Shown here: piece by piece, positions 18,780 to 28,311 of the stretch | Numbering within the stretch: position 1 is the stretch's first letter | Layout: each line of letters begins with the position of its first letter | DNA from: Albugo candida | Lineage: Eukaryota | DNA: 64,000 nucleotides | Direction: 5' to 3' | Assembly (NCBI GenBank): GCA_040437565.1 | Contig: JBDOQK010000001.1 | Coordinates: forward strand, 558,001 to 622,000 | Position numbers and translations under genes: made by a program | The notes under the pieces: model-generated | Seen by the model: only the letters and a program-made list of their open reading frames with translations | Database searches by the model: none | What the model was told of the DNA's origin: nothing

Positions 18780-20214
18780 GAAAGCGGAATCGTTCATGTA
18801 CCTGGATCAAGAGTTGCAGGACATTTTTGATCAGAATGTATAAAAAGGAACGTGATCCATGTGCTGGTTTAGTCAACGCGTCTATATGTGAAGAAATTGC
18901 GAGATGTGGACATGAGTGCTATCAATACCTTCAAAAGGTGGAAGCGTTTCTCTCATCCCCCTTCCCTACGAAATACCCGACCGATAAAAAAAGATTGATT
19001 GTCTAGTGTCCAGAGTTTTTCGAGCATTGTGAAGCCAAATTTATCAAAGCAAATGAAGTTGAAAATGCTCTAAAAGAACGTTTTACTTTTTCGATGCTGA
19101 ATGTGCTAACTAAGGCCTGTGGGATATGCTAATTCGATATCCGATCGAAGAAACGGCAACTCTTCTGAGTATGGCTGTTCAAGTTAATATAAAATCAAAC
19201 AGACAAGCCCACTACGACACATACAAAGCGGCCAAACTTTTGCTTCGGGTGAACGAAGTTTTGATTCGAAAGAAGAAGAAAAAGGATCGAGGGGGGAATT
19301 AGCCACAACCAAGGTGGAACTGGTCTGAAAAATGTAAAAATGCACTTGTCCATGTTTAAAGATATGCCGTTTCTATTTGCATATGCCGTGGCCAATTCAT
19401 TGGTGCGATTTTTAGCCACAGATCGTTTGTTGAATGTCTATCCGATATCACAAGTGCTCGATTTTACATTTTTAAACAGTCGCATTCAAAGTGTTGTATC
19501 ATCGATCAGCATTTGTCTGATTCTCTACCAGTACCGATCACTACTTTTACCAGTTGGTTCTTTGGCATTGTACAAGAAAATACCAAGGAACGAAGGAAGT
19601 GTCACACTTTACGCAAATCACTTATTGAAAGAACTCGACCACGACTCATACGCTTTTGAATCAGTAATGGCTATTTATGACGCAATAGGGCGGAGCGAAA
19701 TCCAATGAACCGTTCGTTTCGACTATAAAAGATACGCGCAAACGTTTCAATTGCAGCCAGTGGGTTTTACAAAGCTACCAAGCAATGATTTGAAGCTGAT
19801 TACTGCGTTAATTTGTGTCGCTGGTGCTCTTGTTGGCTTACATGCACTGGGATATGTTCATAGGAATATCCGCTGGCTAAATCTTTTGTTTTTGGAGACG
19901 ATTCCTACATTCTAGCTGATTTTGAAAACGCAGGTCGCAATTGTGATCAGATGCCGAATGAATTGTTAGAATCGCGAGTACTCGACCCCTTCGTGAAGTC
20001 TGTTGATTATGGGCATGTATATCGCTCTTGTCATGATATGTATCAGTTTGGTCGACTGACTGTTGATACCAGCAATCCATCGCTAGCGCAATTACGGATG
20101 AATCTACAGAGTGATAATGTTGAAGAAAGATATACAGTGGAAGGAGCGCTGAGTTTTCCTTTAAACTTGCAGATAAGAGTGCATGATGATCGTCTGAATG
20201 CAATAGAGCAATGA
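18780..20214 (+). pseudogene. Crinkler (CRN)-type REase plus kinase-like domain pseudogene
   Basis: KRPNFCF (RPDF-like, ~19226), MFKDMPFLFAYA, LQPVG, ALVGLHALGYVHRNIRWLN (~19825-19882) and HDMYQFGRL. In-frame stops (e.g. 19706-19708) and frameshifts; no LFLAK header seen. Confidence 0.65.
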
Positions 20215-21979: not shown

Positions 21980-24900
21980 TCATCTTGTTCGTGCTTTTCC
22001 CAATGTTTTGTTCGTCTCACTATGCATCAGATACTCGAAACCAGTGAATGAGACAACAAATTCACTGACTGCTTGGGTAGCGATCAATGAAGTCAAAAAC
22101 TCTCGTTTTTCCGGTGGAGACCCAGCTAAGTAACTGGCTTCATCAAAGAATATCATTTGAGCGTTTGATCGTTCGTCCTTCCATACAAATCGATGATATC
22201 CAAAATCTCTGATGAGATCGAGCACAGTTACTTGAAATAATGCTCGAATCGCATATTCTGGGAAAACAGATAGCCTCGCGGGGAACTGATGCGCGAATAT
22301 GTGATCGCTTTTTGTAACGCTGGGTTTTAGCTGCTCATATAATCCTTTCCTTAAGCTTTTTATTGTGGAACTGGGGAGTTTTAGAATAGAGGTAGCCCCG
22401 TGCCCTACTGCGCGGCCTATGTCCAAATCGATTATCAGTATGTCTTCCGCCAGTAAATCTCTCATCATAGCATCGTCGAGCCAGCTTTTATTCACACCGA
22501 AAATAAACGGTGTTGGGCATTCGAGGTATTGCAACATTCGACGAGGCAACACTGGAACATAAATATGAGGCCATAAGAGTGGATAAATAAGTGCTTTTGC
22601 AATTTCAGCCGCTTTGAAAAGTACTGAAAAATATGACGATATGAACAATACTCGAGATTCCAAAAGAATTGCAGAGAAGACGAGTATCAATGTGGATATA
22701 TCAAGTAGATCAAATAGCGGTCGCACTGAATAATCCAATGAAGGAATGACTGATAATGGCGATGATTTAGGTAAGGACGATAGAACTTTTGGCTGGCTTG
22801 AGAAACTCTTCATGTATCTTGTCACATGCATTTGTTTCTCGTTTTCAACGCGCATAGATCTGGCAAGTTTTGCTACCAACTTCGGATCTAGCTCATGAGA
22901 TACTTTTTCTCTATTCTTGTGCTCGACGGAGGCTAGATTTGACTCTTTTGATGATTTTGTTGTCTTAAGAACGTCTCTTTCAACAACAACTTCGAAAGCC
23001 TCGGTGATGCGTTCACGCAATGTGTCGACGAGTGGGAATTTTGACGTAATACAAATTCCGTATGGAACCCAATGACATTTGCTAATCCCGTTCCTGCAAA
23101 TAGACGCCGAAGATTGTTTGTGCATCACCAGGCATGCCGCATTCAGTGCGGTCGATGAGCTACTATCACCCACCCTGAAGTTGTATGCAATCGGTGAGGG
23201 ACGAGATTCTCCTGTGCTCAGGACATCGAAGGGATCTCTCGACCAAGGTACTAGGAAGCTTTCAAACATCTTATCCAAAGCGTGCACCTCAGGAGTGTCC
23301 GCCCTGTGATGTTGAACGATTTGCATTTGAAATTTGGTGGTGTGTTGCTGGTCGATGAGATCCTCTATCGCCTCAAATGTCATTATTCCAGTGATTGGAT
23401 CAATTTCCTGCCCGGAGCCAAGTCCACTTGGTTCATAAATCTTGCAGTTGAATCGAGACATTTCTGCTGGCCAGGTGTGTGCACGAAGTCCATAATCGAG
23501 CAAAAGCGTTGCTAGGCGCTGGAAATCATCCATTGAAGAAGCATCTGAAGTAGAAGGAGGAACTTTATGATACAAGGAGAATTCAGCATATGCACGGCTG
23601 GTAAGGAATCTATGGTATAGCTCGAGATGTTTTGTCCCAAACCTCTCCATTATCGAGTCCTGCTCTTGTTGCAGCTTTGCATACGTCCTAGTTAGAGAGC
23701 GTTCAAGTCCTTGCATCTCTAAATCCCCTTTATAGTACTTTTGCACAATATATCGTACAAGACCACGACAATGATAGTCCACTTGTTCTTTATTTTCGTT
23801 TTCCTTTCCTCGACTTCGCATCAAAGAAGCATATCGACGATATGCCGGTTTGAATTCATACTCGATATCGAGCCATAAAGCAATTTCTCGATGATAGTGA
23901 TGTGGAAAAAGAAATATCCAGAAAAAGTTGGCAAAGCGATGATTCATCAAAATGTCTTCCAAATAAATCACTTCTCTGGGTACTCGTTTAAGCATGTCAG
24001 TGTACAACTCTGTCTGTCGAAACTTCGGAAAAGTCTTCATCAAGTAATGCTTCACTCTCGTGACAACAACATCAAAAGCATGCAGCGCATCTTCACCACC
24101 GGCGGCAATGTTGCGCTTCATGCGGCGCAGGAGATCAGAAGTCACGAATTCGGCACCGATGTGAAATTGTGCGTTTTTGGCTAAATATTTTTGCGCAATT
24201 TTGACGCCATACGTACGCAGCAATAAAACATCATCTTTACCGAACGGTTGGAAGACAGACATTTCCAGACTGCGAGGAGTGGCTGTTGGAAGTCGCCGGA
24301 GTGATTTTTGCGTTTCTAAATAGTTGACCCGGAGAGTGCACCAAAAATGGCGATACTCGTGGAATGAACACAAAAAAAATAGTTTGCTTTGATGTGTTGG
24401 GTTTGAAAATGAAGCAGCGTAATATCGCATCATTTGCGGATTGCTGACAATTTCTTCGATGGAGATCAACTTCATAGGTGTATCATTGTACGACGTGGTT
24501 ACTCCGGCTGACGGATGCATTCCAAACGGAAATCGTTTATTCATGATATTGCTTTGATACTGTTCTTGCATCCATTTTGCTAAAGCAGGTATGGAACTTG
24601 GTGCTGATGGAGCCAAGCTGGCAACTGTAACGATACGACCTTTACCTTGGATCGAGTTCAATTTCAGCTCCTTAGGTGCACAAATAACTTTATCTTCGGA
24701 ATGCCGAGATAGCTTATTGCTTTCATTTGCTGAGCCATTATCATTCCATGGGGAGCTGGGGGTCGGATTAAAAAGTAAATTCCGAGCCTTCAATTTCATA
24801 TGCTGAGCCCATCGGTAACGCGCATGTTCTTGTTTGACCTTGTCTTCTTCTTTTTTTATACTTGTCATCTCAATGCTTTGTTCATGTTCTTGATGTTTCA

Positions 24901-25618
24901 ATCTCAAAGCATTTGATAACTCATCAAATGATAGCTCCCGTTCCGGCTCAAATTGCTCTGTTTCGCGTAACATTTGTTCAGAAATCGTGCTACGACGAAA
25001 TGTACTTCGCGGCGCTGAAAAGGAAAAAGAGTATGCAGAATTGTCGGATCGTCGACTTCGAGCAAAGTCATCAGAATCGGTATAGATCAATGTGTTTCTT
25101 GTACTTGCAATGCTATCCCTAATGACCTCTTCGGGCGACACCATTCCGTCTGCCGGAATCGGTGGATTAGGATTCAGACAACTTGAAGATTCTGATTCAT
25201 TATTTGTGCGACTCGATCGTTTCATACTTTCTATAAAGTAGTCGGCGGCATCAAAGGTATCCTTGGCATTGACCTTTCCATCAGACCTGAAAACTTTTTC
25301 CGATAGTATGACATTATTATTCCGCCCATTTTGTTCGTAAAGTGTGGTAGCAGAGACAGAGCGGGTCGGCGCCGGTGGAATCATGTAAAAGCTTGATTTT
25401 GTATTATTGGTATACAATTTGTGATGTAGTTCATCTGATATTTGCGTTGTGTCGGCACATGTGTTGAGCTTGTTTATGCTTCTGGATTCCTGGTGGTTTG
25501 TTATCGCTTCATTCTGCAGAAAGTGGTCGTGTGACACGGATCGTGAGCGATACTGCAATCTACTCTCTTCGGTGTCGTGTAACAAATCAGACTCTGATAG
25601 CGAAGTATCCTTTTCCAT
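21980..25618 (-). CDS. Tandem RGS-RGS-DENN domain protein (1212 aa, single ORF)
   Basis: RGS-like IEEIVSNPQMMRYY...LFFLCSFHEYR...IAQKYL...FPKFRQTELY and LEDILMNHRFANFF...IALWLDIE...YHRFLTSRAY. DENN motifs ICITSKFP, ILLESRVLFIS, YPLLWPHIYVPVLP, YLECPTPFIFGV and a dDENN-like end. Confidence 0.85.
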   Translation of the reverse strand: MEKDTSLSESDLLHDTEESRLQYRSRSVSHDHFLQNEAITNHQESRSINKLNTCADTTQISDELHHKLYTNNTKSSFYMIPPAPTRSVSATTLYEQNGRNNNVILSEKVFRSDGKVNAKDTFDAADYFIESMKRSSRTNNESESSSCLNPNPPIPADGMVSPEEVIRDSIASTRNTLIYTDSDDFARSRRSDNSAYSFSFSAPRSTFRRSTISEQMLRETEQFEPERELSFDELSNALRLKHQEHEQSIEMTSIKKEEDKVKQEHARYRWAQHMKLKARNLLFNPTPSSPWNDNGSANESNKLSRHSEDKVICAPKELKLNSIQGKGRIVTVASLAPSAPSSIPALAKWMQEQYQSNIMNKRFPFGMHPSAGVTTSYNDTPMKLISIEEIVSNPQMMRYYAASFSNPTHQSKLFFLCSFHEYRHFWCTLRVNYLETQKSLRRLPTATPRSLEMSVFQPFGKDDVLLLRTYGVKIAQKYLAKNAQFHIGAEFVTSDLLRRMKRNIAAGGEDALHAFDVVVTRVKHYLMKTFPKFRQTELYTDMLKRVPREVIYLEDILMNHRFANFFWIFLFPHHYHREIALWLDIEYEFKPAYRRYASLMRSRGKENENKEQVDYHCRGLVRYIVQKYYKGDLEMQGLERSLTRTYAKLQQEQDSIMERFGTKHLELYHRFLTSRAYAEFSLYHKVPPSTSDASSMDDFQRLATLLLDYGLRAHTWPAEMSRFNCKIYEPSGLGSGQEIDPITGIMTFEAIEDLIDQQHTTKFQMQIVQHHRADTPEVHALDKMFESFLVPWSRDPFDVLSTGESRPSPIAYNFRVGDSSSSTALNAACLVMHKQSSASICRNGISKCHWVPYGICITSKFPLVDTLRERITEAFEVVVERDVLKTTKSSKESNLASVEHKNREKVSHELDPKLVAKLARSMRVENEKQMHVTRYMKSFSSQPKVLSSLPKSSPLSVIPSLDYSVRPLFDLLDISTLILVFSAILLESRVLFISSYFSVLFKAAEIAKALIYPLLWPHIYVPVLPRRMLQYLECPTPFIFGVNKSWLDDAMMRDLLAEDILIIDLDIGRAVGHGATSILKLPSSTIKSLRKGLYEQLKPSVTKSDHIFAHQFPARLSVFPEYAIRALFQVTVLDLIRDFGYHRFVWKDERSNAQMIFFDEASYLAGSPPEKREFLTSLIATQAVSEFVVSFTGFEYLMHSETNKTLGKARTR

Positions 25619-25671: not shown

Positions 25672-27572
25672 TTAGGAAACATCTGATTTGACAAAATGAA
25701 TCGGAGGTCGCTGATAACTGGTTTTGAACAGCACTCCAAAAGGCTGCCGCTTTATGTGTTCGCGCAAATTACATCGCTTCACTTGCATCTCTTCCAAGCG
25801 TTCCGCTGCTACCAATTCTTCAGCTTGTGCATCTCGCAACGCATTTTCAAGCTCTGATTTTTTATTTCCTACCGCGGGTGAAGAAATCTGGTGGCATAAC
25901 TTTTTGCACTTTGCTTTTACTTCAAAAAGCTGGCGCTCACTGAGTTCTACAATTCGGGTTTGGGTGCGCTCAATCACTAGTATGAAAACTATTCAGTATA
26001 AGCTGATGCTTGTTGAGACTGAAATCTTACCTCGTAAGCAGTATTCGCACCCCTGCTCTTGCTTCGTCTTCCGACAACTTTGTTGATGAAGAAAGTGGAC
26101 TGCGACCTTCTCGCATTCAGGTTCCTCACAGCGAACACCGTCGGAGTGATGCTTGATGTGTTGGTTAATCTCTCCACAGTCTAGAAGACATTTTTCTGGA
26201 TTTGAAATGCAAAAGGATGCATCTGCTATTGAAAATCCGATTCTAAGGTATTCCGCGAGTTTTTTCTTCTTGATGTTTTTCGAGTCATTCAAGATTTCTC
26301 TGATCCAGTCCACTTCTTCTTTTGGAATAAAAACTTTTTCATCGGCTTCGGTGTCAGTTGTGAGAATATCATGTATTTTCAGTTTTTTTTTGCTTGGGTT
26401 TCCATCTGTATCATCAGAGATACAGTTTTCCACATTGACATGAGCCGATCCATGATGAATGAGCGGTAATGTATGATAATCAAATTGAATTCTCCGACAC
26501 ACTCCCTTCCAATCTTCCAGTGCATCGATATAGTATTTTAGATGCTTTTGCACATTCTGCAAATAATTTGTCGCCTGCTGCTTTCGTAAACTTACATTAG
26601 GATCCGTATTCGAGTAATCACGATTCAGTTTTTCAAGAGCTCGTTTTTCTTTTGCCATTTGATACTTTAACCCCACAATCCAAATTTGTTGTCGTCGAAT
26701 CATTACTGTGTGACAGACGTGATGTGAGGCATAGTAGAGAAAAATCCGGCTCAGTTGGACGAACCTGGAGCACAAAATGAACAATTTCTAGCATTAGTGC
26801 ACTGATTAATATGAGAATAAACTTGATTGATGAAACAGCATTGATTGTTTTCAGCACAGAGTTGCTTCTTTTGAAAGTGATCGTAGTGCATCGTGAGAGA
26901 TTGGCACATCGGGTGCTTTTCATGTGTTTGAAAAGAATTACAAAAGCGTGCATCTTCTACTTTACAAGCATCAAAAATACGATCATTCAAATCTTTCTCT
27001 CTTTCTGCGCTACTTTGATTGGATTGGAGCAGTTCACTAATCGTCGGCCACCGGTTGAATGCAGCAGACTTTGTGATAGAAAGCGTCTGTGGTGCTGGAA
27101 CGCAAGATGATTCTTCTTCAGAAAGCGATCCACCTGGTTCATTGATCGTAACTTCATTTGAATTCATACTTTCATTTTCCTTTCCTATTGTCGTTTGTGA
27201 GCTTTCTTGAACGGCTTCATGTTCTCGATCATCACTCTCAACCTTGGCCGATTCCGTGACAGAATTCTCATTTACGACCTGTGGAGTAGAATCAATCAAA
27301 ATCTCGGCATGTTTGTCGCTGTGCGCTTCCGTGAAAAGATGTGGATATCGCAGGTACAATATTTTGAAAGGGAGATACTTAATACCTGCTGCCGCACTCC
27401 CTTTCCAATCTATCAAATGGTCTTGTCCAAAGCCTCTAGAGTGCCAAAGTATGGTACACGATGAGCACAAATGTTTCGTTCCACGTGGATCACATATGAT
27501 ACATCGAAAGAACCATTCTTTAACGCCACACCAATCGCAAATTGAGTGAGAAAGCGATTTAGTGTTGGGCAT
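25672..27572 (-). CDS. B-box-like plus two TAZ-like zinc-finger protein (3 exons)
   Basis: N-terminal CDWC...CIIC...LCSSC...H...H; two Cys/His clusters (HINQCTNARNCSFC and HQQSC...CEYC). GT-AG introns at ~26764-26706 and ~26030-25978 join the ORFs in frame. Confidence 0.65.

Positions 27573-27774: not shown

Positions 27775-28311
<537 letters not shown>

Follow-up and report, generated by a model that had tools for sequence, protein, structure and literature searches.

Does a protein that joins two consecutive RGS-homology domains to a DENN module report on the heterotrimeric G-protein, on Rab GTPases, or on one through the other? The question is raised by a locus of the oomycete Albugo candida lying in a window of 64,000 nucleotides, the whole stretch analyzed here (NCBI GenBank assembly GCA_040437565.1, contig JBDOQK010000001.1, positions 558,001 to 622,000 of the forward strand), whose sole feature under study is an open reading frame (ORF) of 1212 amino acids on the minus strand (21980..25618). 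A preliminary description, made from the letters of the DNA, had read this frame as a disordered N-terminus, two RGS-like domains (about residues 385-545 and 550-685) and a DENN module, and had proposed that it could couple the state of Gα to Rab-driven trafficking, for instance in the secretion of zoospores or effectors. The observation itself is confirmed by our analysis, and its interpretation is partly supported: the frame and the domains hold, whereas the coupling to heterotrimeric G-protein state gained no positive support, the residues needed for GTPase-activating protein (GAP) activity being largely gone and the nearest precedents binding Rabs. The longest stop-free frame across 20 shuffles of the window has 222 amino acids. 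The gene and its parts are as follows, with window coordinates.

21980..25618, minus strand: very likely single-exon gene for the 1212-residue RGS-RGS-DENN protein, clade A (ORF; contig of run X1 crossing it unspliced; mostly synonymous base differences)
24473..25618, minus strand: N-terminal ~380 residues, low in order-promoting residues, no Pfam family
24767..24826, minus strand: basic Trp-containing motif, residues 265-284, net charge +5 (clade A conservation)
24536..24589, minus strand: second short conserved motif before the first RGS domain, residues 344-361 (clade A conservation)
23984..24472, minus strand: RGS-homology domain 1 (RGS1), residues 383-545 (Pfam RGS E 0.0013; SNX13-RGS profile match; column counts)
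23564..23971, minus strand: RGS-homology domain 2 (RGS2), residues 550-685 (Pfam RGS E 0.011, model positions 2-117; RGS4/RGS12 alignments; column counts)
22979..23398, minus strand: divergent uDENN/longin subdomain, about residues 741-880 (transferred from paralog P0149)
22319..22756, minus strand: core DENN subdomain, about residues 955-1100 (Pfam DENN; DENND1B alignment; invariant residues)
22034..22318, minus strand: dDENN subdomain, about residues 1101-1195 (Pfam dDENN E 1e-3; orthologue matches; Q1182)

Against Pfam RGS (cut-off 23.9 bits) the full protein scores 22.5 bits over two stretches, below the cut-off, and residues 380-700 taken alone score 28.9 bits as a pair of stretches, above it; the two halves also match separately, with boundaries that fit those first described, and 13 of 17 orthologues match at E≤0.01. 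A family profile of 74 rows compared with solved chains retrieves DENND1B and DENND1A, then the RGS domain of SNX13 (7wf6, E 1e-6), and also seven other RGS chains at E≤0.01, so that the profile check suggested earlier for residues 380-690 does return RGS matches. The SNX13 match falls on RGS1, for which it is the best among solved chains, with RGS4 as runner-up (E 0.0025). In the Atlas, where neither this protein nor P0149 has a model, all leads of a feature search for the tandem stayed below 0.9 (best 0.79).

The DENN module is matched by Pfam DENN (PF02141) at residues 850-1066 (E 2e-32), and the single sequence aligns with the solved chains of DENND1B (E 3e-17) and DENND1A (E 4e-17). Core DENN residues E987, P1013, W1016, H1018, P1022, P1025, C1034, P1035, P1037 and G1041 are identical in 69/69 full-length rows. 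The Pfam dDENN match (residues 1158-1188) lies under its cut-off; dDENN is matched in all 17 orthologues at E≤0.01 (best 1.9e-7), and the dDENN glutamine Q1182, kept in 67 of the 69 full-length rows, aligns in the family profile with that of DENND1B/1A. The uDENN region has no direct Pfam match in the A. candida protein and was placed by transfer from a sub-threshold match of paralog P0149 (E 0.0036), which maps to residues 780-831; the uDENN-region profiles of clades A and B align with a probability of 99. By sequence, the protein is a DENN family member with RGS-homology domains. Pfam lists only DENN, RGS and dDENN for it, and the set that accompanies RGS in sorting nexins (PXA, PX, PXC and a membrane anchor) was not found. 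A transmembrane anchor was considered and rejected, the lone hydrophobic peak (residues 968-986) falling in the core DENN where it aligns with soluble DENND1B.

As to the N-terminus, its composition agrees with the disorder first described, the fraction of order-promoting residues being 0.19-0.27 vs 0.28-0.40 downstream, but two short conserved motifs (about residues 266-278 and 349-357) interrupt that picture. In the first, A266, R269, W270, Q272, L276 and K277, and in the second W349, Y354 and N357, are invariant in 17/17 clade A rows; the stretch at residues 265-284 is a candidate membrane- or partner-binding helix. The N-terminal region is missing from compact paralogs (e.g., P0049, P0051).

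The protein belongs to a family with four paralogous clades. Clade A orthologues, drawn from the best 120 of 763 matches, occur in Albugo (two paralogs), Pythium-like genera, Phytophthora, downy mildews and Saprolegniales; clade B, which includes PITG_13819 of Phytophthora infestans, gave 38 matches in its profile search, and clade D, found from a paralog in the A. candida genome, gave 62, both with the same taxonomic span as clade A, while clade C comprises two proteins (the clade A and B searches scored 8000 candidates each). Among 225 retrieved proteins, 123 show RGS1-RGS2-DENN in that order, 16 RGS2-DENN, 12 RGS1-RGS2, one RGS2 only and 73 DENN only, and the order from RGS to DENN is fixed in all 123 complete proteins. 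All RGS-matching proteins with a named species come from oomycetes, whereas matches in animals, fungi and ichthyosporeans cover DENN alone; when 1.84 billion representatives were searched with the single sequence, 10 matches resulted, with species known for five. The family is thus likely, on present sequences, to be confined to oomycetes. In the A. candida genome at least four of 12 DENN loci carry the tandem, namely this gene and loci at C7:609.6-612 kb, C12:517-520 kb (clade B) and C67:154-157 kb.

The spacing between RGS1 and RGS2 is 5-6 residues in 77 of the 123 complete proteins, and across clades A, B and D the repeats align position-specifically (probability 81-98 like with like, 0.2-78 crosswise); this pattern fits a tandem inherited as one ancestral unit. 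A core-DENN tree (37 rows, 140 columns), in which long-branched partial frames from the same genome make the deep nodes unreliable, supports clade A at 99/99, clade C at 99/98 and clade B at 94/86; a grouping of all RGS-bearing rows, as a single origin of the fusion would give, is neither rejected (p-AU 0.29) nor shown. Two kilobases or so upstream of the clade B gene lies a Rab-family gene (L041/L065, C12:514100-514900, plus strand), a proximity that is probably due to chance. Runs of N flanked by duplicated sequence occur at several loci, in the Gα gene and others (L004 on C19, L041 on C12, L048, L053), and are assembly artefacts; the database protein P0004 shows similar internal duplications.

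Could the repeats act on Gα as GAPs? In RGS4 three contacts are critical, viz., Asn128, Asn88 and Asp163 (PMC8252600), and a Glu87/Asn88 double alanine mutant has its GAP activity abolished (PMC10794492). Asn128 touches switch II, and Asp163, together with Arg167, touches switch I. These positions were mapped through RGS4, RGS12 and SNX13 alignments and their columns counted in 41 clade A and 30 clade B rows; the anchoring Phe/Trp motifs are clear in the RGS4 alignments. In RGS1 the dyad corresponds to Ser411-Lys412, the Asn88 column holding Lys in 37 clade A rows and Arg in one (three gaps) and Arg in 28 clade B rows (two gaps). The Asn128 position of RGS1 is Gly488 (in clade A, Gly in 24 rows, Asn in 16, one gap), and the Asp163 and Arg167 positions, anchored on F533, are K528 and K532, so that neither residue has an equivalent. 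In RGS2 the dyad corresponds to Arg577-Glu578, with Glu in the Asn88 column of 41/41 clade A rows; the loop that holds Asn128 is missing from this repeat (gap in 41/41). In sum, RGS1 keeps none of the three RGS4 contacts and RGS2 only a Glu for Asp163. Clade D has no Glu-Asn dyad in either repeat (34/34 rows), and Asn at position 88 was found in no repeat of clades A, B, C or D. As a control, Glu-Asn is present in other RGS loci of the same genome (two repeats on C44, one on C7 and one on a small contig), and it is absent from all reading frames of the four family genes, two matches at L020 lying on the opposite strand. These alignments make it evident that contact residues have been lost, and from this we infer a loss of activity: GAP activity of the repeats is unlikely, and with neither the dyad nor the Asn128 contact in place the A. 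candida protein is not, by its sequence, classed as a canonical RGS GAP.

Beside these counts, further RGS proteins encoded in the genome deserve mention. A 747-residue frame (L005-L008, C44:152400-154300, plus strand) carries four RGS domains, two of them with Glu-Asn, and is by this feature the best candidate in the genome for a true Gα GAP. At L013 (C9) and L014 (C28) a protein-kinase frame comes after the RGS domain, a GRK-like layout. A long frame at L016 (C52:59878-63225, minus strand) joins an RGS domain to a C-terminal region that, by its motif, looks Rap-GAP-like. Among the RGS architectures figured in 2014 there is likewise a row labeled 'RGS//Rap_GAP' (PMC3971589).

Despite the loss of GAP contacts, the repeats equal or exceed the core DENN in conservation relative to P. 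infestans. Identity to P. infestans is 67% and 70% for the repeats vs 58% for the core DENN, and 14 and 11 polar residues of the two repeats are near-invariant, so some repeat surface is under selection. Among these residues are E388, E389, R398, K412, E421, R423, K473, K477, D516, K523 and R534 in RGS1 and H573, H576, E578, K590, R594, E666 and R670 in RGS2. The linker between RGS2 and the longin subdomain is the least conserved segment of the structured region relative to Peronosporales orthologues (33-35% vs 58-70% for the repeats). On the side of potential partners, the A. candida genome has one full Gα locus, and P. infestans has one Gα (PMC3971589), in keeping with the very small oomycete repertoire that had been assumed; Ras-family loci amount to 80 match pieces. 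Fragments of Gα and RGS genes on contigs shorter than 1 kb (L002 on C913, L003 on C1489, L011, L018) differ from the main loci and are possibly contaminating eukaryote DNA.

Which GTPase, if any, such a surface might read is suggested by RGS domains that act outside the Gα cycle. [quoted passage not shown] In D-AKAP2/AKAP10, which like the oomycete protein has two consecutive RGS domains, both are required for binding Rab4/Rab11, and no interaction with Gα was shown (PMC2781703). The likeness has limits: D-AKAP2 has no DENN and ends in PKA- and PDZ-binding motifs, where the oomycete C-terminus is the DENN, and SNX13, SNX14 and SNX25 have a single RGS in a membrane-anchored PXA-RGS-PX protein, likewise with no DENN. 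On the DENN side, the core DENN and dDENN of the Rab35 exchange factors DENND1A and DENND1B align with the family (E 3e-17 by single sequence, 3e-32 by profile), but these proteins have no RGS, the family's longin is too divergent to match them directly, and their Rab substrate is not transferable. We accordingly do not file the protein with D-AKAP2 or the SNX-RGS proteins, although by analogy it may work like them.

Because RGS domains that bind Rabs are known, because RGS1 finds its best match among solved chains in SNX13-RGS and because the tandem is fused to a Rab regulator, we tentatively favor a Rab cascade, a preference held with less than even confidence, in which the tandem would read one GTP-bound Rab and the DENN would activate the next. 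The protein would regulate membrane traffic as a soluble member of an old oomycete family; the DENN module, going by family membership, would be a guanine nucleotide exchange factor (GEF) for a Rab, and its two RGS-homology domains, given the lost contacts, would not be Gα GAPs. An upstream Rab-GTP would recruit it, via the tandem, to an endosomal or secretory membrane, where the DENN would load a downstream Rab, placing a Rab cascade within one chain. On this evidence, docking of the protein on traffic membranes is a more likely role for the repeats than a link to G-protein signaling.

Several points weigh against this proposal. The residue mapping passes through weak RGS4 profile stretches (6 and 15 bits), in which single positions could shift. 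The Asn128 column of RGS1 does hold Asn in 16 of 41 clade A rows (Gly in the A. candida protein), in RGS2 the positions of Asp163 and Arg167 are occupied by Glu666 and Arg670 (kept in 36/41 and 39/41 rows), and clade D RGS1 keeps Glu163 in 34/34, Arg167 in 31/34 and Ser128 in 23/34 rows; as aligned, part of the Gα face survives. The excess conservation of the repeats is not general either, identities to Saprolegnia and Aphanomyces being 40-47% for the repeats and 44-50% for the DENN. Divergence and a long insertion common to both sides, and not a common function, may account for the SNX13 match, and D-AKAP2/AKAP10 is not among the matches listed in any sequence or profile search, which makes that parallel one of analogy. 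Some monomeric DENN proteins are Arf-GAPs, not Rab-GEFs (bioRxiv 10.64898/2026.01.05.697756), and no binding datum for the RGS-RGS-DENN family was found in the literature searched.

RGS-homology (RH) domains of the GRK2 type bind Gα without efficient GAP activity, and the tandem might likewise be part of a Gα effector, binding activated Gα non-canonically and thereby relieving an autoinhibition of the DENN exchange activity, so that G-protein signaling would drive Rab activation. The single full Gα locus and the partly surviving canonical face in RGS2 and clade D RGS1 speak for it, as do the RH-RhoGEFs (p115RhoGEF, PDZ-RhoGEF), in which an RGS-homology domain stands ahead of a small-GTPase GEF and is autoinhibitory (PMC6767298). 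Those proteins, however, have one RH domain, a DH-PH catalytic module and a Rho target, are holozoan (PMC3971589) and give no sequence match to the family. The Asn88 position, moreover, is charged in both repeats (K412, E578), and at least four paralogs would have to share one Gα in a genome with many Ras-family loci. The 65 candidates of a PsGPA1 co-immunoprecipitation (PMC7010300) do not include the ids of the three P. sojae family members (PHYSODRAFT_510279, _255860 and _255868); as no RGS-annotated protein was detected in that list and its sequence cells were incomplete, this is weak evidence against a Gα link. We regard the effector reading as doubtful, and we are about as skeptical of a tandem that binds no GTPase at all, being instead a scaffold or an intramolecular clamp that packs on the longin/DENN, dimerizes, or binds a coat, cargo or kinase. 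The early caution that the divergent repeats may only be scaffolds pointed in the right direction. The GAP contacts are lost, RGS domains turned scaffolds after such a loss are known (PMC3971589), and the invariable RGS-to-DENN order would suit them. The poorly conserved RGS2-longin linker nevertheless does not suggest a fixed clamp, and the best-studied non-GAP precedents, SNX13/14 and D-AKAP2, bind GTPases.

Far less probable than either is that one repeat is a true Gα GAP by way of substitute residues, making the protein a bifunctional Gα GAP and Rab GEF. The Pfam RGS match, the Glu666/Arg670 pair of RGS2 and the Asn in part of the clade A Asn128 column could be cited for it, but the Glu-Asn dyad is missing from both repeats in all clades examined, and RGS4 loses its GAP activity when both dyad residues are changed to alanine (PMC10794492); RGS2 lacks the Asn128 loop altogether, and other RGS proteins of the genome, in C44 (the four-RGS protein) and C7, keep Glu-Asn. 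We would be similarly surprised if the DENN module acted as a GAP of the Avl9 type or bound Rab/Arf proteins passively, with the protein switching traffic off. Monomeric DENN GAPs do exist (bioRxiv 10.64898/2026.01.05.697756), paralog P0149 has a faint Avl9 match over its core DENN (E 0.0049), and the uDENN is divergent; on the other hand, the core motifs common with DENND1B are invariant and the dDENN glutamine aligns with that of DENND1B/1A. For the Avl9-type arginine finger, which sits in a longin loop between strands 4 and 5, clades A and B share no Arg at a loop position, with strands judged from the alignment only; their sole common longin Arg, R870, is placed on the same basis in a helix after the last strand and not in an inter-strand loop.

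The preliminary description called the architecture unfamiliar from animals, fungi and plants; the domain pair itself has, however, been catalogued, being auto-annotated in many oomycete proteomes and listed in 2014. Databases tag many oomycete members with both Pfam families (PITG_13819 with PF00615 and PF02141), and '/RGS//DENN/' is a row label, with the same pair in the same order, in a figure that displays RGS architectures in the supplement of de Mendoza et al. (2014; PMC3971589). That row is a label only, with no tandem, clades, residues or function, and the main text does not contain 'DENN'. Since P. infestans was surveyed there and PITG_13819 carries both domains, the row probably rests on this oomycete family; its species cells are unreadable in the figure text, and other lineages in the row are possible. 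RGS-DENN is unmentioned in the main texts of PMC6033456, PMC3521125 and PMC2705460, and no functional study of the family was found in the literature searched on oomycete RGS, Gα and DENN/Rab; further papers may list the fusion. The pair is thus catalogued but uncharacterized; as far as the literature was searched, the novelty lies in the tandem, the four groups of paralogs, the lost GAP face and the Rab-effector model.

The gene model is simple. A TAA stands in frame immediately 5' of the ATG, and a 6008-base contig of run X1 (presumably RNA) spans the ORF with no joint inside. The same contig covers the gene directly upstream, where it skips two CT..AC introns that the unspliced run X9 retains; because it is spliced there and yet crosses the RGS-RGS-DENN frame without a joint, this frame is very likely a single exon. 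Among the 40 of 104 base differences listed, five of the six inside the ORF are synonymous. The closest named protein among the best 120 of 763 matches is from Albugo laibachii (83% identity). The upstream gene (25672-27572, minus strand) has three exons, the two introns (at about 25977-26030 and 26706-26764) being spliced out in runs X1 and X4, and its Cys/His-rich product gives a faint TAZ zinc finger match (E 0.026). A fusion of the two genes was rejected, as the upstream gene is read in a different frame and ends some 55 bases short of the RGS-RGS-DENN ATG, which the TAA directly precedes. Further upstream is a gene for a ubiquitin-conjugating enzyme of 147 residues (27775-28218, minus strand; UQ_con E 7e-52). 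At 19650-20130 all four runs, including a DNA-like one, show raised depth and many base differences; this is probably a repeat or mobile-element fragment.

What, then, would the fusion mean for oomycetes? We offer as a speculation, and one that may well fail, that in this family of four paralogous groups a GAP-dead RGS tandem reads the state of a GTPase and the fused DENN loads a Rab, the GTPase being in the boldest form the single Gα that controls zoospore behavior and in the likelier form a Rab. The boldest form, if true, would be a direct effector from Gα to a Rab GEF, the equivalent for Rabs of the RH-RhoGEFs, and one of which the literature searched gave no description from any organism; the likelier form would be an RGS-based Rab cascade. 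The family also bears on the question, posed by a 2026 preprint, of whether non-canonical RGS domains generally serve to bind Rabs (PMC13596360). Because the family makes up at least a third of the DENN loci of the genome and has been retained in lineages as far apart as Albugo, Saprolegnia and Aphanomyces, it is likely part of the core traffic control of oomycetes, one that looks lineage-restricted. Oomycetes have one Gα with few known effectors, and polarized secretion underlies their hyphal growth and infection; should the tandem bind Gα instead, the protein would be a missing effector joining receptor signaling to vesicle traffic.

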